DNA from: Candidatus Nealsonbacteria bacterium | GTDB lineage: Bacteria > Patescibacteriota > Minisyncoccia > Minisyncoccales > RBG-13-42-11 | Direction: 5' to 3' | DNA: 64,000 bases | Assembly: GCA_019923625.1 (NCBI GenBank) | Contig: JAHXGN010000001.1 | Location: 8,939-72,938 of the forward strand | Part shown: positions 9,176-55,764 of the stretch, piece after piece | Position numbering within the stretch: position 1 is the stretch's first letter | Layout: each line of letters opens with the position of its first letter | Notes under the pieces: model-generated | What the model saw: the letters and a program-made list of their open reading frames with translations, nothing else | Told to the model about the DNA's origin: nothing | Database searches by the model: none | Position numbers and translations under genes: made by a program

Positions 9176-9760
9176 TTAAGAAATCTTAAAATATTCTCTT
9201 AACCCCTTATCCCCTCCAATATCTTCGCAAACAATCAATCTCATTTCTCTTTTGCTTAAACCAAAGAAACTTCTTAAAAGCTCAATCTCATCGCGGCAAT
9301 CAAAAGGATAAAGCCAAACACTTTTTTGTAATGGGTAAAAACCTAATTCTTTTAATTTACCTCGAAAGACCTCTCGATAAAATTTTTTCACTTGAGAAAT
9401 ATCAAAAATTACTAATCTCCATTTTCCATCCCACCTTTTGGGTCTTTTAATTCTTAAAGCATCTATTTGCATCCAACCCGCTAATTTCTTTCCCTCCTTA
9501 GTCAGATGGATATAGATTTGATTTTTTACTATTTCTATATCAAGACAACCCTGTTTCTGTAATCTTTTAAATGCGTCGGTTATTTTTCTTTTTTTATACT
9601 TTTTATACTTTTTCCAACGTTTTATTTCTCGGATTATATTTATCCCAAAATACGGAGAAGTAGCCGCGACGCAAATCATACCGGTTGTAGCTAACGTCAA
9701 AAGCACATCTTTAATAATTTCTGATTTTGGTTTTCTAAGATAATACTTGTATTTTGTCAT
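9176..9760 (-). CDS. PaaX C-terminal-domain-like protein with an N-terminal transmembrane segment
   Basis: KRWDGKWRLVIFDIS...FRGKLKELGFYPLQKSVWLYP matches the PaaX_C signature. Confidence 0.45.
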   Translation of the reverse strand: MTKYKYYLRKPKSEIIKDVLLTLATTGMICVAATSPYFGINIIREIKRWKKYKKYKKRKITDAFKRLQKQGCLDIEIVKNQIYIHLTKEGKKLAGWMQIDALRIKRPKRWDGKWRLVIFDISQVKKFYREVFRGKLKELGFYPLQKSVWLYPFDCRDEIELLRSFFGLSKREMRLIVCEDIGGDKGLREYFKIS

Positions 9761-12838: not shown

Positions 12839-13402
12839 GTGAATTTAAATAAAATTTTTCTTATCGGAAGACTAACTCGAGACCCCCAGATTAAATCTCT
12901 TCCTTCGGGCCAGCAAGTTTCTACTTTTGGCTTGGCTACCGATCGATTTTTTAATGATAAATCCGGTCAAAAACAACAGAAAGTTGAGTTTCATAACATT
13001 GTTTTGTTTGGCAGATTAGCCGAGATTGCCTCTCAATATTTAACCAAAGGTGGGTTGGTTTTTATTGAAGGAAGAATTCAAACCAGAAGCTGGCAGGATA
13101 GTTCCGGTAATCAAAGAACAAGAACTGAAGTTGTGGCTGAAAGAATTCAACTTGGACCAAGAACAGCTTTGAAACAAATGCCGGAAAAAGAAATAGTTGA
13201 TGAAGATAAATCTTCTTCTCCACCCCTGGCTACGGCTCAGGAGGTCGAAGAGGATAAATCCTCTTCTCCACCCTTGGCTAAGGCTCAGGTAGTCGATGAA
13301 GATAAATCTTCTTCTCCGCCCTTCGCTGCGGCTCAGGTAAAAGAGGAAGAAATTCCGATTATTGAAGAGGACGAAATTGACGTAAAAGATATCCCGTTCT
13401 AA
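12839..13402 (+). CDS. ssb: Single-stranded DNA-binding protein with three tandem 16-aa repeats in the C-terminal tail
   Basis: OB-fold core (LTRDP...FHNIVLFGRLAE) and a GTG start. Confidence 0.85.
   Translation: MNLNKIFLIGRLTRDPQIKSLPSGQQVSTFGLATDRFFNDKSGQKQQKVEFHNIVLFGRLAEIASQYLTKGGLVFIEGRIQTRSWQDSSGNQRTRTEVVAERIQLGPRTALKQMPEKEIVDEDKSSSPPLATAQEVEEDKSSSPPLAKAQVVDEDKSSSPPFAAAQVKEEEIPIIEEDEIDVKDIPF
13198..13341 (+). repeat. 3 x 48-nt in-frame tandem repeat (gatgaagataaatcttcttctccaccc...) encoding DEDKSSSPPLA.AQ.., a member of repeat family A
   Basis: Seen in the sequence. The same motif recurs in ftsK, rplV, the tpiA-map intergenic region and the FtsA-like gene. Confidence 0.85.
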
Positions 13403-17427: not shown

Positions 17428-19242
17428 TTATTTTCTAAAGCCGGTTCCGGCCGGGATAAGACGACCAATGATGACATTTTCTTTCATTCCTAAGAGTTTA
17501 TCTTCTTTTCCCTCTAAAGCCGCTTTGATTAAGACCCGCGATGTCTCTTGAAAAGAAGCAGCTGATAAAAAACTATCAGTAGTTAAAGCCACCTGGGTAA
17601 TTCCCAATAAAAGGGGAATGCCAACAGCTATTTTTTTGTTTTCTTTTTTAAGGACATTGTTTATTTCCTTGAATTTGCTTTTTTCTAAAATTTCACCGGA
17701 GATGAAATTACTATCGCCCGGATTTTTAATCTTGATTCGGGAAAACATTTGTCTGGCTATTATTTCCAAGTGTTTATCGTGAATAGCGACGCCCTGAGAA
17801 ACGTAAATTTTTTGAATTTCTTTTATAATATAATTCTGAGTTTTTTCTTTATTGGTCAGTTTAAATAATTCTTTTAAGTCCAAACTGCCTTCGCAAAGTT
17901 GTTGACCCTTTTCAATATTTTCACCTTGTTTCACCCAGATAGAGAAATTAATTGGAGTTTTGTATTCAATAATTTCCGACTTTAGAGTTTTATTTTTTAT
18001 TTTTATTATTCCCTCTTGAAGAACTTCCAAAACTTTTCCGTCCTCTTTGGATATCTCCGCTTTTCCTTTCGGGATTCTTAGTTCAAAAATTTCCTGAACC
18101 CGAGGCAAACCGGAAGTAATATCCACCCCTCCGGCCACTCCGCCGATATGAAAGGTTTTCATTGTTAATTGGGTTCCCGGCTCCCCGATCGATTGAGCGG
18201 CTAAAACTCCGACGGCTGTTCCCAATTTAACCATTTGATTTGAACCCAAATCCCAGCCATAACATTTTCGGCAAATACCCCTGATTGTTTTACAAGTTAA
18301 AGGAGAACGAACCCTTACTTTTTCCGTTCCTTTTTTAATAATTTCCTCGCCTTTCTCTAAATCAATAATTTCTCCCTTTTTTATAATTCCCCTTATCTCG
18401 TCTAAAATTACCCGACCAATGATTTTTTGAAGAAAATTTTGGCCGATTTCCTCTGCCTCTTTTTTAAAAATCTCAATTCCTTGTTTGTCTCCGCAACTCT
18501 CTTCGCTTACCATTACTTCATGACTAACATCAACCAATCGTCTGGTTAAATAACCGGCTGTTGAGGTCTTTAGGGCCGTATCGGCCACTCCCTTTCTGGC
18601 GCCATGAGTGGAAATAAAATATTCCAAAACACTCAAACCCTCTTTGTAAGAATTTTTAACCGGCAACTCAATGGTTTGACTCATTGGATTAATCACCAAT
18701 CCTTTCATTCCGGTCATTTGAGTTAATTGGGTCAGGGAACCCCTGGCCCCGGCTTCAATAATAGATAAAACAGAACTGTCCCCTGACAGGGTTTGAGGGA
18801 CTAATTTTTCAATTTCTGATTTTGTTCTTTGCCAAACTTCAATCGTCCTGTCTTTCTTTTCTTCCTTGGTCAAAAAACCATCCTTAAAATATGATTCAAT
18901 TTTTTCAATTTCTTTTTCGGCTTCTTCAATGATTTTTGGTTTTTGGGTCGGAATAATTAAATCGTCCATGCCAAAAGAAACTCCTGAAAGCGTTGAATAT
19001 TCAAACCCCAAATCTTTAATTTTATCTAAGGTTTTTTCAACTTTTTCCAAGGGATAATCTTTAATAATTCCCGAAACTATTCTTTCCAAATCTTTGGTTT
19101 TTATGGTCGTATTTTGGAAAGGAAAACCCTCGGGCAGAATCTGATTAAAAATAATCCGGCCGACGCTTGTCTCAAGAAAGTTAGTAGTCATTCTGATTTT
19201 AATTTTGGCTCTTAAATCAATTTGACCATGTTCATAAGCCAA
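17428..19242 (-). CDS. rpoC: RNA polymerase beta' subunit, C-terminal part (downstream frame of an interrupted rpoC)
   Basis: Beta' conserved regions (NADFDGDQM is in the upstream part; here [13 protein letters not shown] and others). The ORF-track start codon is TTG and the segment continues in frame from upstream. Confidence 0.8.
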
Positions 19243-20834
19243 TAGGGCTTCTTCGAAATTTCCAAAAAATTTTTCGGAGGGCGAAGAGACTTCGGACCGG
19301 TCGCCGGTTTCAGTAAATTCAAACTTGATGACATAATTTTTCTGGATTCTTCTTGGGCTTCTTCGGAAAGAGGAAGGTAAACCGCCATCTGATCACCGTC
19401 AAAATCGGCATTATAAGCCTTACAAAACAAAGGATGAAGTTTTATTGCTTGGCCTTCAATTAAACGCGGTTCAAAGGACTGAATCCCCAATCGATGAAGG
19501 GTGGGAGCCCTATTTAATAAAACAAGTTTGTCTTTTACCACCTCTTCCAACGATTGCCAAACCACCTCTTGTTCTTCTTCAATTAACTTGGTAGCCGCCC
19601 TAACATTAAAAGCCAGTTCTTTTTCCAGAAGTTTTCTGATAATAAAGGGTTTAAATAACTCTAAAGCCATTTTTTTAGGAATGCCGCATTCATGAAGTTT
19701 TAACTCCGGACCGACAACAATAACGCTTCGACCGGAATAATCAACCCTTTTTCCCAAAAGATTTTGTCTGAATCTGCCCTGTTTTCCTTTAAGCATATCG
19801 GCTAAAGATTTTAAAGGCCGTTTTCCGCCGGTTGTCGCCTGAGTAGTCACTCTTTTTCTCATCGGATTGTCAATTAAAGAATCAACTGCTTCTTGAAGCA
19901 TTCTTTTTTCATTTCGAACTATTACTTCGGGAGCCCCTATTTCTAAAAGATATTTTAAGCGATTGTTTCGATTAATAACCCTTCGGTAAAGGTCGTTCAG
20001 GTCAGAAGAAGCATATCGACCGCCGTCTAACTGAACCATCGGTCTTAAATCCGGAGGTAAAACCGGCAAAACAGTTAAAAACATCCATTCCGGACTAATT
20101 CCTTTTTCCTCCATTCCTTTAAAAAATCTTAATCTTATTAAAATTTTTCTTTTTGTTTCCGGTGTTTTTGTTTCTTCCAGAACTTTTTTTAATTTTTCAA
20201 TTTCTTTTTTAAGATTAATATTTTCAAAAATTTTCCTTAGGGTCTCCGAGCCAGTACCGGCTTCAAAAACTTCGCCGTATTTTAAAGATAAGTCTTGATA
20301 CTCCATCTCAGATAAAACCTTCAGGGGTTTAATTGACAACACCTCCTCGAACGCCCTATCCCTCGCCGACTTTAATTCTCCCAGCTTTGGTTTTTTAAGT
20401 TTTAAGTTTTTAGTTTTAGTTTTGCGCTTTGAGCTTTGCTCTTTGAGCTTTAATTTGTATTCTTTCTCAATTTTTTCCAAAATTTTCTTTTTCGCCTCCC
20501 CAGAGACCCTGGTAATAATGTAAGCCGTAAAATAAATTACTCTGGCTAATTTGATATGACCCATTCTTTCCCGCCTAACTTGAGATTTCGTTACTTCCAC
20601 CCCGCAACGGTCACAAACCACTCCTTTATAGCGGATTCTTTTGTATTTACCGCAATAACACTCGTAATCCTTTTCCGGTCCAAAAATTTTTTCACAAAAA
20701 AGACCGTCTTTCTCGGATTTCTGGGTTCTATAATTTATTGTTTCTGATTTTGTCACCTCACCGCGGCTCCAGCTTAAAATATCTTCTGGTGAAGCTAATT
20801 TTATTCTTATGGTTTTTAAATCTTCTACTCTCAT
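19212..20834 (-). CDS. rpoC: RNA polymerase beta' subunit, N-terminal part (upstream frame). Ends 31 nt inside the downstream part after a -1 frame break
   Basis: Zn-finger CxxC...Cxx[12 protein letters not shown] and [11 protein letters not shown] motifs. Frames join at ccgAAAAATTTTTTgg, around 19228-19243. Confidence 0.8.
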
Positions 20835-24263: not shown

Positions 24264-25159
24264 AAAACTACAAAAAACCCTAAATTGAGCAGTTTTTAGG
24301 GCACAAATCCGATTATTAATTTTAAAAAAGGGTTATTCTCAAGACAAAATTTCTAATGGGGTGAATTTGTTAGTTTTTTGGAGTTGTCCCGGATCTCGTT
24401 TTAAGGTGATAAGATCAACACCCTAAGGTTAGTTTGAGAATTCTCGCAAACCAACAATAATCCACGGACAGGTTCCCCTACCCGTGCCTTGTTCATGTTT
24501 TTCCCTATATCGCTATAGAGCATGGACTATATCATCATCCTCTGAATGTTCCATCGTGTAATGCTCCAAGAAGATAAGATTTAATTCGAAGAGAATTTTG
24601 TTCTCTTCTCAATACTTTGTTTTTACTTCGTAATTTTCTTTTAGGATTACTCCTAAAAGGTCGCAACAAGTAGTTTACATCTACGACTTACGCCTTCTCA
24701 CTGAGCTCAGCTTAACCCCGCCCTCTAAACTCTATAACTTCATTTAATAAATAAAGCGCAGAGGGCGAGGTTTCGGCTATTCTCCACCGTGACGTGGCTG
24801 ATTCACGGTTACTAGCGATTCCGGCTTCATGAGGTCAGGTTGCAGACCTCAATCCGAACTAAGGTAGCTTTTGATGAGATTAGCTCCGGCTTACGCCTTG
24901 GCAACTCTTTGTAACTACCATTGTATCATGTGTGCAGCCCAGGGCATCAAAGGGTCACGCTGATCTGGCGTCATCCCCACCTTCCTCCCCGCCCTCTAGG
25001 CTCTATAACTTCAATTTAAAATAAATACATAAAGCATAGAGGGCGAGGCAGTCTCCCGCGACACTTGTAACGCGGGATAGGGGTTGCGCAGGTTTCCCCA
25101 TTTAAGGAAGCACCTCAAGGCACCTGCTGACGACCATATTTCTCCATAATTACTTATGG

Positions 25160-26095
25160 TATGGACTATACCATTTCCCGTATTTAGTACGGGACCAGCG
25201 TTTAATGATGGGTTGTACCATCATTTAACTCTCTTAACCCTAGCAAGAGTTAAGTCTCTACGGGGTACGAGTACTAATTTTTGTAACTTCACTGAATAGG
25301 GTAAAATACTTTCCAAAAATTTTTTCACCTCATAACGAGAAATATAAAGACAAAATGTTTTCGCAGTTTTGTAGTAATAAACTCTTACATTACTAATGCC
25401 AATTCTTTTAAGAAGCTCTTTATCTTTCTCAGCTTCACCTTCTCTCCCATAAACAATCCGACAATCATTCCGTAAGTTTTTATCAATTGAACCATCTCCA
25501 TCGAATCTGCCAGCGAAATAGGCTTTTATTATATTCTCTTTCTCTTTCTTTAAACTTTCTAAATTAGCTTTAGCTCTTCTAAATTCTCTCAATAATGGAC
25601 GACTATTTACGAATAAATGGTTCCGGTTAAACTTTATTCTGTTTTTTGGAAAAATTCTTTTCAAAAATTTTCTAAACATTTCAATTAAATCAGGGTTGGT
25701 ATTACTTAATCCTACTGAACTTGCCCACCAATAACTGTCAGCGCACCAAAGACCGAGAATATAAGCGTCTTTCTCGTTTGAGAAGAAATTACAAAAATTA
25801 GTACTCGCACTTCCCACGGTGTTGCCCACCCCGCCCCCTAAGCTGTTTTTCAAGTTTTTTATTTCCATAATATATTCTTCTATTTTATCAAGAATATAAC
25901 CAATATTAAACAGCACAGGGGGCGGGGCTCGGGTTTCACCGTTATGAGCTGGTTTTTCATCGTGGATTACTCCACGAGGGGTCGTATCCCGCCCTCTAAG
26001 CCCGTCGAATTTTTATTTAGCGAATAATAAGATTTAATTTCTAATTGATTTCGCTTACTATTATTCTACGAGCATAGAGGGCGGGACCAACCATG
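25160..26095 (-). mobile_element. About 0.93-kb insertion (intron-like) in 16S after GGTGCTGCATGG (E. coli position ~1052), encoding a double-motif LAGLIDADG endonuclease (boundaries approximate)
   Basis: The 16S exon sequence resumes at GTCGTCAGCAGGTGCC. The insertion begins with the family-D hairpin tcccgccctcta...tagagggcggga. Confidence 0.6.
25221..25916 (-). CDS. LAGLIDADG homing endonuclease (two motifs: LGLWCADSYW and YFAGRFDGDGSI)
   Basis: Motifs read directly from the ORF translation. The ORF lies inside the 16S insertion. Confidence 0.75.
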   Translation of the reverse strand: MLFNIGYILDKIEEYIMEIKNLKNSLGGGVGNTVGSASTNFCNFFSNEKDAYILGLWCADSYWWASSVGLSNTNPDLIEMFRKFLKRIFPKNRIKFNRNHLFVNSRPLLREFRRAKANLESLKKEKENIIKAYFAGRFDGDGSIDKNLRNDCRIVYGREGEAEKDKELLKRIGISNVRVYYYKTAKTFCLYISRYEVKKFLESILPYSVKLQKLVLVPRRDLTLARVKRVK

Positions 26096-26230
26096 CAGCA
26101 CCTGTTCCACTATCCTTGTGGGTAGTTCCATTTTTCAACGGAATTTTAGTGGAATGTCAAGCCCTGGTAAGGTTCCTCGCTTGTTATCGAATTAAGCCAC
26201 ATGATCCACCGCTTGTGTGAGTCCCCGTCT

Positions 26231-26262
<32 letters not shown>

Positions 26263-26374
26263 TCCCAGGCGGGACACTTAACGCGTTAGCTTCGCCACTT
26301 GAAGGGTCGACACTTCAAATAGCTAGTGTCCATCGTTTACAGCGTGGACTACAAAGGTATCTCACTTTTGTTAC

Positions 26375-26925
26375 TTTCCTCCGTAAGCGGAGGAGGGATA
26401 GAGCATTTCTGTCTATCTCTCTACGTCGCCGTAGAGGTCGGACTATATCTTTATCTCAATTGAATTGACAACTGCTCTATAAAATCCATCTGTAATTATG
26501 CCAATTCTTATCCGTTCTTTATCCAGTCCAAATATATTCACCATACAATCTCGAAATAGTTGAATGAGAATTTCTGACGAGTTCGAAAAATAAATCCTCC
26601 AACTATTTTTCTTTTTAGGAGAAACACACCCATCAGTAAATAATATTGCCAATAGAGAAGCAAGGTCTTTACTTATCTGTTTTGAGATATCTGGCATATA
26701 GTCTCTGAGGATCCCGAACACATGATGCTTTATGTGCTGCGGTTTCCTGCTGATTGTCTGCACTAGTAGCTTTGTCACTTAAAGAGATAATTAATATAAT
26801 AATTATAACATATAAGTAGCTCTAGATACACAGGTTTTCCAGCATATAGCCAGATTATTTCTTCCTCCAAGACAAGGAAGGGATCCAAAAACTTCGAGAA
26901 TCAAACCGCGGTATGCGATGTCTTT
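26375..26925 (-). mobile_element. About 0.55-kb insertion in 16S near the GGATTAGATAC|CC region (position ~790), encoding a short single-motif LAGLIDADG protein (boundaries approximate)
   Basis: 16S sequence GAAAGCGTGGGGAGTAAAAAGGATTCAAGAGGATAC is interrupted here and resumes at GATACCTTTGTAGTCCACGCTGTAAACGATG. Confidence 0.55.
26443..26778 (-). CDS. LAGLIDADG-family protein (single motif LLAILFTDGCVS), possibly degenerate
   Basis: Motif in the translation. The ORF lies inside the 16S insertion. Confidence 0.55.
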   Translation of the reverse strand: MTKLLVQTISRKPQHIKHHVFGILRDYMPDISKQISKDLASLLAILFTDGCVSPKKKNSWRIYFSNSSEILIQLFRDCMVNIFGLDKERIRIGIITDGFYRAVVNSIEIKI

Positions 26926-28381
26926 TATTCTCGAGTATCCTCTTGAATCCTTTTTACTCCCCACGCTTTCGTCTCTCAGCGTCAGATCCGTTCCAGCTGA
27001 TTGCCTTCGCTTTTGGGGTTCCAGTCGATATCAACGGATTTCACCCCTACACCGACCATTCCATCAGCCCCTAACGGCCTCTAGTTAAGTAGTTTCTAGG
27101 GCACTCTTCAGGTTAAGCCCGAAGTTTTTAACCCTAGACTTACCAAACCGCCTACAGACTCTTTACGCCCAATAAATCCGGATAACGCTTGGGGGCTCTG
27201 TATTACCGCTGCTGCTGGCACAGAGTTAGCACCCCCTTATTCCTGGAATAATGTCACCCCGCCCCCTAGGCTCATCACCAAAGCTATCTAATTCACCACG
27301 TTAAAAAAAGATAATGAAACTAGATAAACTTAGTCACGAGCATAGGGGGCAGGGTTCTTCCTCCAGAAAAGCTCTTTACACCCCGAAGGGTTTCTTCAAG
27401 CACGCGGCGTCGCTGGTTCAGGCTTTCGCCCATTGACCAATATTCTCGGCTGCTGCCTCCCGTAGGAGTGGGGCCCGTGCGGTCATGTTCTCACACCGCC
27501 TACCCGTCATCGCCTTGGTGAGCCATTACCTCACCAACTAGCTGATAAGCCGCAGACCCATCCCTAAGCAGTTCTTGCGAACCTTTTACCAGGAACCGAT
27601 TTATATCTGTAAGAACTGCTCGGAATTTCCATACTTACAAACACAAATCGGTTCCCGGATCATTGGGTATTAGCTTGTCTTTCGACAAATTATTCCCATC
27701 TCAGGGGTTGGTTATCTACGTGTTACTAACCCGTTCGCCATTAGCCAATGCTCCGCATTGGCACGCTGATTTACGCGGATTAGGGCTCGCTTCGCTCGCA
27801 ACGCGGATTTACGCGGAAAAATTATCCGCGTTTATCCGCGTCCGGTTGCAAAGCAACCGCCAATCTACGTTTATCCGCGTGTCAGTGCGAAGCACTGACT
27901 CATACGACTTGCATGCCTTATCCACGCCGCCAGCGTTCATCCTGGACCAGGATCAAATCCTCAATAATACGCTGAAGTTGCGCTGAAAAAAGATTTCCGC
28001 TGAATTTTAATCAACGTACTCATCAGCGTCATATCAGCGGTGTCCCCGTAAGGGGACATTCGGGACAACTCAAAAAAACTAAATGAACGATAGTGAATTT
28101 ACCATTCACTCCGTTCCGATTCAATTTTCAAGGTTCTTTCCTTTTTATGTTTTTCTTCCCCGGTATTACTACCCGAAAAAGAAAATAATCAACAACTGCA
28201 ACACTTTTTCTTTTTTGTTTTCTTTGCCATGTTTTCTTTATTCTTTTACTTGTCTTTAAATTTTACTTTTTAAAAAAACTTTTGTCAAGTCCAGTCTTGT
28301 ACAACAAGATGAGCCCCAAATGAAAGCCATTTCTAACGCAAAACGACCCTGAAATTTGTGTTGAAAACAGCGGAGAAGAGA

Positions 28382-29010
28382 CTATATTTCTTCAATTTTC
28401 TTTTTAAAATCTTCCCATTTAATATTTTTTCCGCCGGCCAACTTACAAATTTCAAAAAATTCGCAATATTGACATTGCCAGCCCGTTGGAAAGACCGATA
28501 ATCTTTCGGGAAGAATATTTGCTTTAATTTTTGATTTTAATTCTTCAAAATTAATCAAAAGTTTATTGACTAATTTTTAATTCCAAAATAATGGAGATAG
28601 AGCTGAATTTGATAAGAATCTTCTATTTTCGGTTCTGTCATTTTTTCCAAATTCATTCGGCCGCTGATACTTTTAATATCTAAAACATAGGGTTCTCCTT
28701 CAAGGCTGATAATAGCATCGGCCCGGCCGGAAACTATTTCCTGAGGAGGAATATCAATCTCAGTTGCCCTTATTAACCTTAAACTGATAAGGGGTCTTAA
28801 AATTAATTGATGAATATAGTTTCCGTACTCAAATAATCTTAATTTTTCAGCTTCAATTTCTTTGGCCGGAGCTTTCTTAAATCTAAAAAAAATACTTCTC
28901 GGACATTTTCCAGCTTCACTAATATAAAATTTGGCTCTTTCTTTGTTCCTTCTTTCATTTTTTTCTCTTTCTTTATCCAAATAAAGTTTATCAATAAGTT
29001 CCTTTAACAT
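28382..29010 (-). pseudogene. Cas4-family (RecB-like PD-(D/E)xK, DUF83) nuclease gene split by a -1 frame break
   Basis: The 146-aa ORF (28570..29010) carries the Cas4 N-terminal Cys motif (EAGKCPRS) and the motifs EYGNYIHQ, GRADAI, EGEPYVLDIKS and the QxxxY motif (YQIQLY). After its TAG stop, a -1 frame continues ...WQCQYCEFFEIC..., supplying the Cas4 C-terminal C-x2-C-x5-C Fe-S cysteines, down to TAG at 28382-28384. The frames overlap at the run ggaattAAAAAttag. Confidence 0.65.
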
Positions 29011-29039
29011 ATAAAATAATTACGCGCTTGCCGAGCGGA

Positions 29040-29210
29040 TTTATTCTTATAACAGGAGCGAGGCAATAAGTTTCAGAGTAAATTTCGCAGGTCTGTTGGC
29101 ATGGCTCCCGACAAAGTCGGGACAACAGACCGAGAATTTAGATAGTCAAATTTCGCTGGAAATTTGAACTATCGGTACTCTGAAACTTCGTTGCCGAGCG
29201 GATTTACCGT
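29040..29210. ncRNA. Family-C structured intergenic element, copy E1, downstream of rpsI; flanked by direct repeats TTGCCGAGCGGATTTA at 29027 and 29193
   Basis: GAGCGAGGCAATAAGTTTCAGAG ... CTCTGAAACTTCGTTGCCGAGCGG, with nested stems ggtctgttg/caacagacc and tcccgac/gtcggga. Confidence 0.5.
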
Positions 29211-29884
29211 TTTTGCCACTGCGGCGCGCGGCGGGCGCGCTTTAAGCCGAATTTTTTTCTCTCTTTTTTACGGGGATCGCGTTTTAAATAACCGGCCTTT
29301 TTTAATCTTTTTCTGAAATCGGGGTTAAATAAAATTAAAGCCCGGGCAATCCCGTGTCTGATAGCTTCGGCTTGAGAATGAATTCCTCCACCTTTAACCT
29401 TAATCAAAATCCGGAATTTATCAAAACACTTCATTTTTTCCAAAGAAGCAGTAGTAATTTGCTGAAGTTCAAGGGTTGGAAAATAAAGATTATAAGGTTT
29501 TTCATTAACCAAAAAAACCCTTTCTCCCTGGGTAAAAATCCTGATTCTGGCTATGGCTGTTTTTCTCCGACCGATTGCTTCAAGATACTTTTCTGGTTTA
29601 GGTGGAAGTTTTGGTTTCTTATCCTCTTTCGGAGGCAGTTTTTCCTTAGGGGGGGTCTTTTCTATTTTTTTTATTTTCGGTTTTTTCTCAATTTCCCGAG
29701 CGCTAGCGAGGGAGTTCGAAGAGAACTCTGTTCTCTTCTCACGCCCCACCTTCCTATCGTCGGGTTCAACGTTCGAAGAGAACTCTGTTCTCTTCTCACG
29801 CCTCACCTTCCTATCGTCAGGTTCAGCGCAAGAAGAAGCAATAGTTTCATTGAGCTTTGTTTTTTTATTTTTTTCTATCGGCAT
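29204..29884 (-). CDS. rpsI: 30S ribosomal protein S9 with an about 95-aa N-terminal extension containing two tandem family-A repeat units
   Basis: S9 core KYLEAIGRRKTAIARIRI...ARRAPQWQKR. The extension contains [19 protein letters not shown] twice. Confidence 0.85.
   Translation of the reverse strand: MPIEKNKKTKLNETIASSCAEPDDRKVRREKRTEFSSNVEPDDRKVGREKRTEFSSNSLASAREIEKKPKIKKIEKTPPKEKLPPKEDKKPKLPPKPEKYLEAIGRRKTAIARIRIFTQGERVFLVNEKPYNLYFPTLELQQITTASLEKMKCFDKFRILIKVKGGGIHSQAEAIRHGIARALILFNPDFRKRLKKAGYLKRDPRKKERKKFGLKRARRAPQWQKR
29695..29828. repeat. Family-A element, tandem 1.7 copies inside rpsI (cccgagcgctagcgagggagTTCGAAGAGAACtctGTTCTCTTCtcacgcc..caccttcctatcgtc.ggttca.cg), containing a 9-bp-stem hairpin
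   Basis: Near-identical copies at 42525-42601 (rplR) and 47458-47570 (rplV). Confidence 0.9.
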
Positions 29885-29886
29885 TT

Positions 29887-30234
29887 TTATTCTATTTTTA
29901 ATTTTTTAATTATTTTCTCTCTTAATTTGTTTTTCGGCAACATGCCGTAAATGGCCATTTTCAAAACCTTGGCTGGATTTTTCTTAAAAATTATTTTTAA
30001 TGGAGTTTCTTTAAGACTGCCTAAATAACCCGAGTGATGGTAGTATTTTTTTTTCTCCATTTTTTTACCGGTTAATTTAATTTTTTCTACATTTTTAACC
30101 AGCACGAAATCACCCACATCTTTATATGGCACGAAATCTGGCTTGTGCTTACCCCGCAATAATATGGCAATTTCGCTTGCCAATCTGCCTAAAACCTTGT
30201 CAGTGGCATCAATGGTGTGGGTCTTACGTTCCAT
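29887..30234 (-). CDS. rplM: 50S ribosomal protein L13
   Basis: L13 sequence similarity (ATDKVLGRLASEIA...) and the rplM-rpsI gene order. Confidence 0.85.
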   Translation of the reverse strand: MERKTHTIDATDKVLGRLASEIAILLRGKHKPDFVPYKDVGDFVLVKNVEKIKLTGKKMEKKKYYHHSGYLGSLKETPLKIIFKKNPAKVLKMAIYGMLPKNKLREKIIKKLKIE

Positions 30235-30258: not shown

Positions 30259-30609
30259 TTATTTTATTAATTCAATAATGGCCATTTTGGCGCCGTTTGA
30301 TTTTCTCGGCCCCAACTTAATAATCCGGGTATAGCCGCCCTTTTTTTCTTTATATCTAAGGGCAATTTCTTCTATTATTTTTTTTACTACCTTTGGTGAA
30401 AATTTTTGAAGCAATAATCTTCGCGAGGTCAAATTGTTTTTTTGGGCCCTGGTAATTGTTTTTTCAAGAAATGGTCGCACCTCTTTGGCTTTTGCCTCGG
30501 TTGTTTTAATTTTTTCTTTCAAAAAAAGAGAGCTTGCCAAGCTTCTCAACAAGGCCTTTCTTTGGTCTCTTTTTCTATTTAGTTTTCTTCCCTTTTTTCT
30601 TTTTTTCAT
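30259..30609 (-). CDS. rplQ: 50S ribosomal protein L17
   Basis: RKLNRKRDQRKALLRSL... GGYTRIIKLG signature. Confidence 0.85.
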   Translation of the reverse strand: MKKRKKGRKLNRKRDQRKALLRSLASSLFLKEKIKTTEAKAKEVRPFLEKTITRAQKNNLTSRRLLLQKFSPKVVKKIIEEIALRYKEKKGGYTRIIKLGPRKSNGAKMAIIELIK

Positions 30610-31381
30610 CTTTTTTAGAAAGAACCTGTTTTTTTAACCGACTTTTTTTCTTTTGTCTCTGGGTTTTTTCCCGAATTTTGGGAATTTTAACCAAAGAGGG
30701 AGCAAAGGTCTCGGAAATTAAAGAAAAATGTTTAATCAAAATATCTGAGGCCTGAAAAAGAGCTTCTTCTGGTTTTAAAGTGCCATCGGTTTCAATTTCT
30801 AAATTAAGTTTATCAAAATCAGTTCTTTCTCCAACCCTCATATTCTCAACCTTAAAGGCCACTTTTCTTACCGGGCTATAAATGGCGTCAAGGGGAATTA
30901 CCCCTATTTCTAATTTTTCTCTTTTTTTTAATTCTTTCGGTTGATAACCTATTCCTTTTTCAATTAATATTTCCATTTCTAATTCTGCCTTTTTTTCGGT
31001 TAAGGTGGCGATATGAACATCTTTATTTATTAATTCAACATGGCTGGGTAATTCAAAATCAGAACCATTTATTTTTTTCTCACCCTTTATTTTTAAAATC
31101 GCTTTTTGGGGTTCATCGCTAAAAATTTTAAATCTCATCTGTTTCAAATTAAGCATAATAGAAATTACATCTTCTAAAACCCCGGGGATAGTAGAAAATT
31201 CATGAGAGACCCCTTTAATTTTCATTTGAGTAACAGCTGCTCCTGGTAGAGAAGAAAATAAAACCCTTCTTAAGGAGTTGCCGATTGTCACTCCATAACC
31301 GGGATAAAGGGCTTCAATTTCAAATGTTGCTTTGTTTCCTTTTTTTTCAATAATTTTTGGTTTAAGAAAAAGAGGTATCAT
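30575..31381 (-). CDS. rpoA: RNA polymerase alpha subunit, N-terminal domain only, ending in a Lys-rich tail (no alpha-CTD)
   Basis: Alpha-NTD motifs (GYGVTIGNSLRRVLFSSLPGAAV). The C-terminus is KKKSRLKKQVLSKKDEKKKKGKKTK and overlaps the rplQ start by 35 nt. Confidence 0.75.
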   Translation of the reverse strand: MIPLFLKPKIIEKKGNKATFEIEALYPGYGVTIGNSLRRVLFSSLPGAAVTQMKIKGVSHEFSTIPGVLEDVISIMLNLKQMRFKIFSDEPQKAILKIKGEKKINGSDFELPSHVELINKDVHIATLTEKKAELEMEILIEKGIGYQPKELKKREKLEIGVIPLDAIYSPVRKVAFKVENMRVGERTDFDKLNLEIETDGTLKPEEALFQASDILIKHFSLISETFAPSLVKIPKIREKTQRQKKKSRLKKQVLSKKDEKKKKGKKTK

Positions 31382-34261: not shown

Positions 34262-34388
34262 ATTAGTCAACCCAGTTAAATAAAATCTGAAAGATTTTAG
34301 ACCAAAGGGTCTATTTAACGGGGTCAACCCAGTTAAATAAAATCTGAAAGATTTTAGACCAAAGGGTCTATTTAACGGGGTCAAACTT
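34262..34388. repeat. Exact tandem duplication (2 x about 67 bp: gtcaacccagttaaataaaatctgaaagattttagaccaaagggtctatttaacgggg) containing the palindrome tagaccaaagggtcta
   Basis: Seen in the sequence, between infA and the downstream hypothetical gene. Confidence 0.85.
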
Positions 34389-35612: not shown

Positions 35613-36977
35613 TTAGGTTTTTTTCTCATAATCAAGAAGGAATAAAAAATTGGGGGTATATTGAGGATTATTAAAATCTTTTTTGTTTATTTTCTCAATG
35701 TTTTTAAAATTTTCCGAATAGTCGAAGAAGATTCCTTCTTCTCCGCCCCTCGCTGCGCTCGGGTAGTCGCTGAGGGCCTCGCCCTCATCTCCACCCTTTG
35801 CTGCTCTCGGGTAGTCGCTGAGGGCTTCGCCTTCATCTCCACCCTTCGCTGCGCTCGGGTAGTCGCTGAGGGCTTCGCCTTCATCTCCACCCTTCGCTGC
35901 GCTCGGGTAAATGAATTTTACCTTAGGTCCATCTATGAAAAAAAATTCTTGCCAATCGCCATTTTCTAAAATTTCTTTGATTTCTTCAAGTAGACTTCCT
36001 CCGCCAAAAATAAAAATGGTTGAGGGAAAAATTTTTATTTGGGTCATTTCTGCCAATTTTATTTTAAGATTTTTAAACCATTCATTTTTTTCAAAAGAAA
36101 AAAACTCTTTAATTTTGTTGGTTGTTTCTAAACTTAAAAGTTTTTTTGAATATTTTTCTTTTAAAATTCTGGCTTCCTTTAACCTCATTGCCAATTTTTG
36201 AGAAAGCTTTTCGTCAAAAAAATTCGCCCCGACTGGAAATTCATCAAGCGCTTCTATTTTTTTGTTTTTAAAAATAAAAATTTTGGTTAGTTTGGCGCCG
36301 ATATCAAGATAAATGCCGTCTGACCTTTCATTGTTTTCAACAAAAGAAATTAATCCCTGGGTTTGGCTCAAATAAGATAAACCTTCTTCTCCGCGAAAAT
36401 TTAATTCTTTGAAAATTTTTTGATGGTTTTCAAAACAGACCTTGGGTAAAAAGGCGGCTAAAATTTTAAACTCCAAATTTTTTCCTTGATATCCTTCCAA
36501 AACTGGTATTTCATAGCCATTAATTTTTATTTCTAAAACTCTTAAAGAAAGAAAATGGAAATCTTCCGGTAAAATTCCAAAATCCCCGGCTAATTTTTGA
36601 GAAACTTGTTTTTTGGTTCTTTGAAAAATTTTTTGATAAATTTCATTTTTTTCTTTTTCTTTAATAATCTCTGTTTCGCTTTCTCTGATTAAAAACTGAT
36701 GATAAATTTTCTCTTTTAAAGCATGAGGGGGTAAACCAATAATTAAGGATTTTATTTTTCCTTTCTCTTCTTTTATCCAAGCCGCGGCAAAAGAAAGATT
36801 TTTTTTAATAATCTCTATTTCTAAATCCTCATCTTTTTCAAAATATTCCAAAAAGCTTTTTAAAATAAAAAATTTCTCTTTTTCTTTTTTAAAAATTAGA
36901 GATTTTATCGCCTGACTGCCAATATCCAAACTGACAAAAAATTCTTTTTCTTTTTTCCTTGGGAAAAACCATTTCAT
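35613..36977 (-). CDS. Actin-fold ATPase of the FtsA/PilM family with 3.5 C-terminal 16-aa tandem repeats
   Basis: N-terminal VSLDIGSQAIKSLIF phosphate-1 motif. The C-terminus repeats DYPSAAKGGDEGEALS. Confidence 0.45.
   Translation of the reverse strand: MKWFFPRKKEKEFFVSLDIGSQAIKSLIFKKEKEKFFILKSFLEYFEKDEDLEIEIIKKNLSFAAAWIKEEKGKIKSLIIGLPPHALKEKIYHQFLIRESETEIIKEKEKNEIYQKIFQRTKKQVSQKLAGDFGILPEDFHFLSLRVLEIKINGYEIPVLEGYQGKNLEFKILAAFLPKVCFENHQKIFKELNFRGEEGLSYLSQTQGLISFVENNERSDGIYLDIGAKLTKIFIFKNKKIEALDEFPVGANFFDEKLSQKLAMRLKEARILKEKYSKKLLSLETTNKIKEFFSFEKNEWFKNLKIKLAEMTQIKIFPSTIFIFGGGSLLEEIKEILENGDWQEFFFIDGPKVKFIYPSAAKGGDEGEALSDYPSAAKGGDEGEALSDYPRAAKGGDEGEALSDYPSAARGGEEGIFFDYSENFKNIEKINKKDFNNPQYTPNFLFLLDYEKKT
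35715..35905. repeat. 3.5 x 48-nt in-frame tandem repeat (..cccgagcgcagcgaagggtggagatgaaggcgaagccctcagcgacta..), related to family A
   Basis: Shares agcgaaggg(g/t)(c/g)ggagatgaag with the 38295-38345 intergenic copy, and cccgagcg...agcga with the S9/L18/L22 copies. Confidence 0.8.
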
Positions 36978-55008: not shown

Positions 55009-55764
55009 ATGATAAATGAATCACAATCAGTAATTGTTGAAATCAGGGCAGGAGCCGGCGGAGAAGAAGCGTCTCTTTTTGTTGCCGATTTATTAAAAAT
55101 GTATTCAAGATACGCTTTTTTTAATCATTGGCAACAAAAAATTTTGGATTCTCGTCCAACTTCTTTAAATGGCTTTAAAGAAATTATTTTTGAAATTTCG
55201 GGTAACGGAGTTTTTTCAACAATGAAAAATGAGGCCGGGGTTCATCGCGTCCAGAGAATCCCGACCACCGAGAAATCGGGCAGGATTCACACCTCTACGA
55301 CCTCGGTGGCAGTACTGCTGAAACCCCAGAAAGGAAAAATTACCATAAATCCCAATGACTTAAAAATTGACACCTACAAATCATCGGGTCCTGGCGGTCA
55401 ATATGTCAACAAAAGAATGACTGCTGTCAGAATCACCCACTTGCCCAGCGGATTGGTAGTTACCTCGCAAACCGAAAGAAACCTGCAGCAAAACAGAGAA
55501 AATGCTCTGAGTATCCTGGCAGCCAGGCTTTTAGAAAAAAAAGAGGTGGAGGAGAGGACGAAAGTGGGAGAAGAAAGACGTTTGCAAATCGGCAAGGCCC
55601 AGAGAGCGGAAAAAATCAGAACTTATAATTTCCCTCAAAACAGGATTACCGACCACCGCCTGAAAAAATCATGGCATAACCTGGAAAAAATATTAAATGG
55701 AGAATTAGGTATAATAATTAAATCTTTCGAAAAAGAAAAAAACGAAGCGACTAATCTTCAATAG
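55009..55764 (+). CDS. prfA: Class I peptide chain release factor, RF1-like (PTT tripeptide motif, GGQ), lacking the N-terminal domain 1
   Basis: 251 aa. Begins at the position equivalent to RF1 residue ~110 (VEIRAGAGGEEASLF). Contains QRIPTTEKSGRIHTS and SGPGGQYVNK. Confidence 0.65.
   Translation: MINESQSVIVEIRAGAGGEEASLFVADLLKMYSRYAFFNHWQQKILDSRPTSLNGFKEIIFEISGNGVFSTMKNEAGVHRVQRIPTTEKSGRIHTSTTSVAVLLKPQKGKITINPNDLKIDTYKSSGPGGQYVNKRMTAVRITHLPSGLVVTSQTERNLQQNRENALSILAARLLEKKEVEERTKVGEERRLQIGKAQRAEKIRTYNFPQNRITDHRLKKSWHNLEKILNGELGIIIKSFEKEKNEATNLQ

Follow-up and report, generated by a model that had tools for sequence, protein, structure and literature searches.

Cas4 SSO0001 of Saccharolobus solfataricus (4ic1) is a 5′-to-3′ exonuclease that acts on single-stranded DNA and carries a 4Fe-4S cluster. 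Members of this family also occur away from cas loci: solo Cas4 has been described in CPR genomes, Parcubacteria and others, where it is over-represented in small genomes that have no CRISPR, is inherited mainly vertically under ordinary purifying selection, and has an uncharacterised function (Hudaiberdiev et al, 2017; BMC Evol Biol 17:232, PMC5704561). A solo Cas4 of Methanosarcina mazei Go1 has been studied biochemically, and that report describes solo forms as expressed, functional enzymes (PMC12501428).

The gene considered here fits the description of solo Cas4 in the CPR exactly, being a Cas4-like nuclease gene outside CRISPR-cas loci in a small-genome CPR bacterium, and its homologues are named Parcubacteria, Patescibacteria and Nealsonbacteria. 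A stand-alone Cas4-type gene in such a bacterium is a kind of gene that has already been published. Two things set this locus apart from the published description: the ribosomal protein gene rpsI lies directly upstream in 76 of 80 related loci, and the copy studied here carries a 70-nt gap that we attribute to assembly. The word 'ribosomal' is absent from the text of PMC5704561, and a literature search for Cas4 together with rpsI or S9 returned nothing relevant. With the M. mazei protein, which is archaeal, the gene product shares its stand-alone status. With SSO0001 it shares the sequence motifs CPR, GRADAII, (D/E)IK, QxQxYL, KGILxY and WxCxYCxFxxIC, all of which align; SSO0001 is archaeal, and the CPR protein, which is known from sequence and a structural model, is extended by an additional N-terminal helix (~25 aa) and by a C-terminal tail (~20 aa). 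CRISPR-associated Cas4 (TIGR00372/PF01930; type I-C Cas4-Cas1-Cas2, 8d3l) has the same fold and motifs, but the protein described here scores below the equivalog level, has no cas1, cas2 or array in the surrounding DNA analysed, and has ribosomal protein genes as its conserved neighbours.

In the window, the 64,000-nucleotide stretch of a Candidatus Nealsonbacteria contig that was analysed, the gene is divided between two reading frames of the minus strand. Its 5′ part (28570..29010) is an ORF of 146 aa, as the first-pass annotation had proposed, and three-frame translation found within it all of the nuclease motifs that had been claimed (GKCPRS, EYGNYIHQ, GRADAI, EGEPYVLDIK and QIQLY). This ORF holds the N-terminal Fe-S cysteine C36, D98 (in GRADAI), D111-x-K113 and Q134xxxY138. 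The 3′ part (28382..28573, minus strand) is in the -1 frame and encodes residues 170-232 of the intact protein together with the stop codon; within it lies a second ORF of 58 aa (28382..28558). Here too the earlier claim was borne out by three-frame translation, as the three C-terminal Fe-S cysteines (C203, C206 and C212 in WQCQYCEFFEIC) are encoded in the -1 frame by this second ORF. The 146-aa and 58-aa products are MBZ1345050.1 and MBZ1345049.1 of a Candidatus Nealsonbacteria MAG, showing that the lesion was already in the deposited assembly of this CPR/Patescibacteria genome. In the cluster table each truncated product occurs on a single contig, that of the window's own MAG, and an exact look-up of the 146-aa product in the gene-position index returned no record.

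The two frames overlap at a run of adenines, and the first-pass annotation had linked them through the length of that homopolymer (A5 or A6). Comparison with intact alleles gave a different answer. Alignment of the DNA to five contigs of nearly the same sequence, which come from three other metagenome assemblies (L001, L002, L003, L004 and L085) revealed that exactly 70 nt are absent from the window between 28574 and 28573, rather than a slip of one base. The junction (28573..28574, minus strand) lacks the third base of codon K146 and codons 147-169 (GILLYLNKDTHVIKEFSVNYDDN), and residues 1-145 of the 232-aa protein are followed in the window by an asparagine created by the gap and a TAG codon. 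L001 and the window are 100% identical over 486 nt upstream of the gap and 99.7% identical over 763 nt downstream, and the 629 nt of the gene that are retained match the L001 allele at 100% apart from the gap itself. The 70-nt segment is also present in L004 and L085, which represent strains 99-100% identical to the window, and in L002 and L003, which are 95% identical. The intact proteins encoded on these contigs are 232 or 233 aa long (P0001, P0123 and P0124); P0001 (232 aa), encoded on L001 from another metagenome assembly, is the closest. The missing stretch is a hotspot of strain variation, with L001 differing from L004/L085 at 7 of its 70 positions while the flanks are nearly identical. 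No microhomology was found at this junction or at the other gap junctions described below, leaving slippage between direct repeats unsupported.

What the gap removes is a conserved part of the protein. A search with the fused 210-aa sequence returned 1,353 relatives, and among the matches listed almost all are 226-259 aa long, exceeding the fused sequence by ~22 residues. A block of the form KGILLYLNKDT...Y.. is found in every aligned homologue and is missing from the window. The lost residues 147-169 include 7 of the 36 positions that are invariant in the family (G147, L150, Y151, K154, D155, F162 and Y166), are modelled by AlphaFold as two consecutive strands, E146-153 and E159-165 (pLDDT 88, pTM 0.81 for the intact protein), and align with KGILVYITPD of Cas4 SSO0001.

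These observations bear directly on how the broken frame should be explained. An A5-versus-A6 error, or programmed -1 frameshifting at the A run, would join the two ORFs into a functional protein, and this idea draws on the -1 frame of the second ORF, on the position of the junction directly after the A5 run, and on the open frame of 210 aa that one added A creates. However, that 210-aa product still lacks residues 147-169, which every homologue has and which comprise seven invariant positions and two core beta-strands; the intact alleles have A6 plus 69 more bases and not A6 alone; and the fused protein scores below the intact homologue on every HMM. The single-base correction suggested by the first-pass annotation would accordingly yield an open frame but not the 23 conserved residues, and its proposed recoding event fails in the same way, since the two frames together do not contain the complete conserved protein and the 23 codons are found in no frame. 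Because one extra A cannot bring these residues back, both an A5 frameshift and recoding are excluded; the alignments already refute a reading of this kind, and we consider it extremely improbable. The other possibility that had been raised, a decaying remnant, was not upheld either. The single 70-nt gap is the only lesion in the 629 nt compared with the intact L001 allele, and since the retained flanks are 100% identical to that allele there is no sign of decay.

A different kind of evidence came from the remainder of the contig. Sibling scaffolds were retrieved by exact look-up of the window's RpoB. Identity to the window is 99.4% for L085 (BBPE01002831) and 99.1% for L086 (BBPD01001135); L004 (BBPD01005618) is a further sibling scaffold. 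In a three-way alignment covering 17 kb, there were 17 places at which the window lacks a segment of at least 5 nt that a sibling scaffold has, and no insertion of at least 5 nt in the window relative to L085/L086. Not all of these extra segments can be taken as deletions from the window, as about half of them are runs of N in the sibling scaffolds; these were dropped, and nine segments of real sequence were kept as evidence. The nine gaps comprise 70 nt in the Cas4-like gene, 18 and 48 nt in the 16S rRNA gene, 159 nt in a group I intron, 29 nt, and 84, 26, 27 and 109 nt in rpoC. The N-runs of the sibling scaffolds (26-216 nt) fall in the same size range as the gaps of the window, which itself contains no N. 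Mismatches between the window and L085 crowd near the gaps, with 61 of 103 lying in 7% of the aligned columns. The sibling assemblies have defects of their own: L004 has no called S4 gene, L085 has a short recA, the rpoC and ftsK of L086 are likewise short, and no available assembly of this population is clean.

Several of these gaps fall in sequences that a cell needs. In the window rpoC (17428-20834, minus strand, next to rpoB) is split into ORFs of 540 and 604 aa and lacks 84 nt at ~20544 and 109 nt at ~19293; in L085 the gene is unbroken and its product is 1217 aa long. The missing 84-nt and 109-nt segments encode a stretch of 28 residues and one that begins LPVVTLYQDIGFGCYWLT, and the protein they specify aligns to conserved parts of solved RNA polymerases. 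The splits of rpoC at these two positions are assembly gaps, not biology. In the 16S gene, the missing 48-nt segment (3′ domain, near 24785) includes TTGTACTCACCGCCCGTCA of the 1400 decoding region. Further gaps are those of 18 nt at 27479, also in 16S, and of 29 nt at 24463, and 159 nt are missing from a third group I intron (24503-24686), whose Rfam score is 33.4 bits in the window as against 79.6 bits in L085. No cell could live with such lesions in its single-copy rpoC and in its 16S gene, and the contig is therefore a faulty consensus. That rpoC and the 16S decoding centre have gaps of the same kind in turn argues that the gap in the Cas4-like gene is most probably an assembly artefact, and neither a pseudogene, a homopolymer error nor recoding. 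Most likely, the assembly broke off where the strains vary, and the pieces on either side were then joined with the bases in between left out. Two points speak against an artefact: the intact alleles were obtained from different samples with a different assembler, and the junction has neither N nor duplicated ends.

A real 70-bp deletion would make this a freshly inactivated Cas4-like gene, either a very recent pseudogene or a loss-of-function allele segregating in the population. The junction is clean, the two fragments have entries of their own in the deposited MAG (MBZ1345049.1 and MBZ1345050.1), the 70-nt region varies between strains, and a Cas4-like gene is in principle non-essential, all of which would be compatible with such an event. 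We nevertheless judge it unlikely: no further decay accompanies the gap, the truncated products are confined to one contig, the gene is intact in all 80 related species, and the like gaps in rpoC (two) and in the 16S decoding region would be impossible in a viable cell. Our preferred reading is that a normal chromosomal solo Cas4-type nuclease gene together with a 70-nt gap of this assembly is the whole explanation, and we give this a probability of roughly 0.8. What appeared to be a frame-disrupted solo Cas4 thus reduces to a known type of gene plus an assembly gap. More broadly, the contig holds many silent gaps of 18-159 nt, rpoC and 16S rRNA included, and apparent frameshifts, pseudogenes and candidates for recoding on it are not to be trusted without reads.

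The assignment of the gene to the Cas4 family in the first-pass annotation held in part. The product is a PD-(D/E)xK nuclease with four Fe-S cysteines, but the curated Cas4 cut-offs are not reached: the intact protein P0001 matches both TIGR00372 cas4 (49.8 bits, cut-off 65) and PF01930 Cas_Cas4 (20.2 bits, cut-off 22.7) over the full length, below threshold in each case, and only the generic model PF12705 PDDEXK_1 (cut-off 22) is passed, at 30.9 bits. The fused window sequence scores 23.8 bits with PF12705 and the 146-aa ORF alone 17.7 bits; the broken version in the window scores 12.3 bits with PF01930 and 35 bits with TIGR00372. A homologue, P0033, reaches 25.2 bits with PF01930. Six PADLOC Cas4 models match the intact protein (E 5e-4 down to 9e-14), and for the fused window sequence there are matches to two PHROG families of Cas4-like exonucleases (E 1e-13 to 1e-17).

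A profile built from 57 family members reached exactly one solved protein, Cas4 SSO0001 (4ic1; E 2e-13, nearly full length), in an alignment that matched the catalytic motifs and all four cysteines. D98, K113, Q134 and Y138 are invariant in the 57 homologues and align with the SSO0001 motifs of a RecB-type PD-(D/E)xK enzyme; also invariant are C36, C203, C206 and C212 (CxxCx5C plus the N-terminal cysteine), which form a predicted 4Fe-4S site. The AlphaFold model has the Cas4 fold, and its top Foldseek match is again 4ic1 (E 6e-11, TM 0.60-0.67, 24% identity), with further matches to type I-C Cas4 (8d3l, E 3e-6), Pcal_0546 (4r5q), MGME1, Exo5, enzymes of the lambda-exonuclease type and the nuclease domains of AdnAB. 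In a library of representatives at 50% identity, the family profile found 6,911 proteins at E ≤ 1e-3 and 2,080 at E ≤ 1e-10. Because the profile and Foldseek matches to SSO0001 coincide with invariant motif residues and cysteines, we conclude that the protein is, as judged by sequence and model, a Cas4-like RecB-type nuclease with a predicted 4Fe-4S site, and that its membership of Cas4 is borderline by curated thresholds.

One could hold instead that the enzyme is a generic PD-(D/E)xK nuclease (PDDEXK_1, resembling the nuclease domains of AddB and RecB) for which the Cas4 label is misleading. PF12705 is the sole model above its curated cut-off while PF01930 and TIGR00372 fall short, and Hudaiberdiev et al (2017; PMC5704561) treated pfam12705 branches as not CRISPR-associated. 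This seems quite unlikely given that SSO0001 is the only solved protein reached by the profile, with all motifs and four cysteines, and is the top structural match as well, and that the PADLOC and PHROG models of Cas4 and Cas4-like exonucleases match. The two Pfam families are moreover related, so that the choice between Cas4 and PDDEXK_1 is largely a question of naming.

The stand-alone status of the Cas4-like gene within the window was confirmed. No CRISPR-like repeat array occurs anywhere in the 64 kb when tandem and spaced direct repeats are searched, the search returning only in-frame coding repeats of 48 or 57 nt and short chance pairs, and a scan of 20 larger ORFs lying outside the ribosomal cluster found no Cas domains. 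The gene does not sit in an adaptation module: its neighbours are rpsI and 16S, and the window has no cas1, cas2 or array. A 194-aa protein encoded at 9176-9760 (minus strand) matches PaaX_M, the 'PaaX central Cas2-like domain', with E 7e-18; it is a PaaX-type regulator domain and not a CRISPR Cas2, and the solo status of the Cas4-like gene is unchanged.

As the first-pass annotation had described, the gene is set among core genes, with rpsI and rplM (29204..30234) on one side and the 5′ end of 16S (~27967) on the other. All of the upstream genes lie on the minus strand: rpoA (30575..31381) and rplQ (30259..30609) precede rplM (L13; 29887..30234), which is part of the conserved operon, and the neighbour that is conserved upstream of the nuclease gene is rpsI (29204..29884), which encodes S9 with repeats in an N-terminal extension. 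The generality of this arrangement was assessed at 80 loci from a species-representative genome collection, at 45-67% protein identity. The Cas4-like gene is a single uninterrupted ORF at every one of them, with a length of 224-259 aa in 79 and of 193 aa, under the start codon chosen here, in the remaining one. The four loci at which rpsI is not found upstream on the same strand include two with <320 nt of upstream sequence. The order is rpoA-rplQ-rplM-rpsI-Cas4-like gene, with a median distance of 66 nt between rpsI and the nuclease gene and ten distances of 1 nt. In this clade the Cas4-like gene comes last in the rpoA-rplQ-rplM-rpsI cluster and is probably co-transcribed with it.

The downstream side is variable, with murA and/or mreB at 1-6 kb in most of the 80 loci. 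A downstream 16S gene was considered as a conserved feature and rejected, as it was found at none of these loci, which usually have murA and mreB on that side; adjacency to 16S is therefore specific to the lineage of the window. In the close relative L002, rpsI and the nuclease gene are separated by a PDDEXK_3 gene, and the nuclease gene is followed directly by murA and mreB. Nor does linkage to rpsI extend to the family as a whole: the next cluster at 50% identity, P0125, is not beside rpsI and has mreB nearby, and the contig of P0129 is too short to show the linkage either way. Linkage to rpsI is a trait of the clade, not of the family.

The modest new biology of this locus is that, in this clade, a solo Cas4-like gene is conserved, with its reading frame intact, at the end of a ribosomal-protein/rpoA cluster. 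Membership of the cluster offers a handle, through operon membership and constitutive expression, on the function of solo Cas4 in small genomes that have no CRISPR. The intact 232-aa product combines a RecB-like PD-(D/E)xK core (D98, D111-x-K113, Q134xxxY138) with a predicted four-cysteine 4Fe-4S site, and by analogy with the Cas4 enzymes SSO0001 and Pcal_0546 it would be expected to act as a Mg/Mn-dependent 5′-to-3′ exo/endonuclease on single-stranded DNA, with a fold stabilised by the 4Fe-4S cluster. Since cas1 and cas2 are absent from the window, the Cas4-like protein could not act in spacer acquisition. Most likely, again by analogy, its role would be in the processing of DNA ends (recombination or RecA-dependent repair) or in the salvage and recycling of DNA, not in CRISPR adaptation, and its expression may be coupled to growth via the ribosomal-protein cluster. 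A stronger proposal is that a solo Cas4-like nuclease, fixed in the rpoA-rplQ-rplM-rpsI unit across a large clade of Paceibacteria/Parcubacteria, has a growth-coupled housekeeping role connected with the translation or transcription apparatus or with nucleic-acid recycling, for example the processing of imported or host-derived DNA, or the turnover of RNA or rRNA introns. We regard this as rather doubtful; what is observed is the adjacency, and if the proposal were true it would give a Cas4-family protein a function outside both CRISPR and defence.

The sequences flanking the gene have features of their own. The spacer between rpsI and the Cas4-like gene (29028..29205, minus strand) contains a very stable, imperfectly paired hairpin ~148 nt long (-71.6 kcal/mol, z -6.8) with an exact 15-nt direct repeat (AAATCCGCTCGGCAA) on each side, one copy of which overlaps the rpsI stop codon. 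The spacer matches no Rfam family at the gathering threshold, and there is no second copy of the hairpin within the window. The hairpin probably represents the insertion of a small element, with duplication of the target, and does not belong to the gene. In Firmicutes, mobile elements are known to integrate at the 3′ end of rpsI. On the other side, 3′ of the Cas4-like stop codon and 5′ of 16S, a promoter-like site (TTGACA-17-TAAAAT; 28260..28288, minus strand) agrees with the consensus at 11 of 12 positions and, on this consensus match, is probably the rRNA promoter. Its position suggests that the nuclease gene and 16S are separate transcription units.

The 5′ two-thirds of the 16S rRNA gene (26194..27967, minus strand) contains a group I intron that carries a LAGLIDADG ORF. 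The gene as a whole is split by several group I introns (24503-26914, minus strand), two of which carry ORFs for LAGLIDADG homing endonucleases (26443..26778 and 25221..25916). Group I introns with such ORFs in 16S are typical of CPR bacteria.

Two further features of the window were noted. Near-perfect tandem repeats of 48 or 57 nt occur at 29714-29827 (the N-terminal extension of rpsI), 13194-13339 (the 3′ end of an SSB ORF), 35734-35909 and 34266-34384; their copy number varies between sibling assemblies, and a related peptide motif, AAAKGGEE, is encoded in an rpoC segment missing from the window. A release-factor ORF with PCRF and RF-1 domains (55009-55764, plus strand) starts at position 97 of the PCRF profile, and its N-terminal part either lies in another frame, as in the classical programmed +1 frameshift of prfB, or was lost in an assembly gap.
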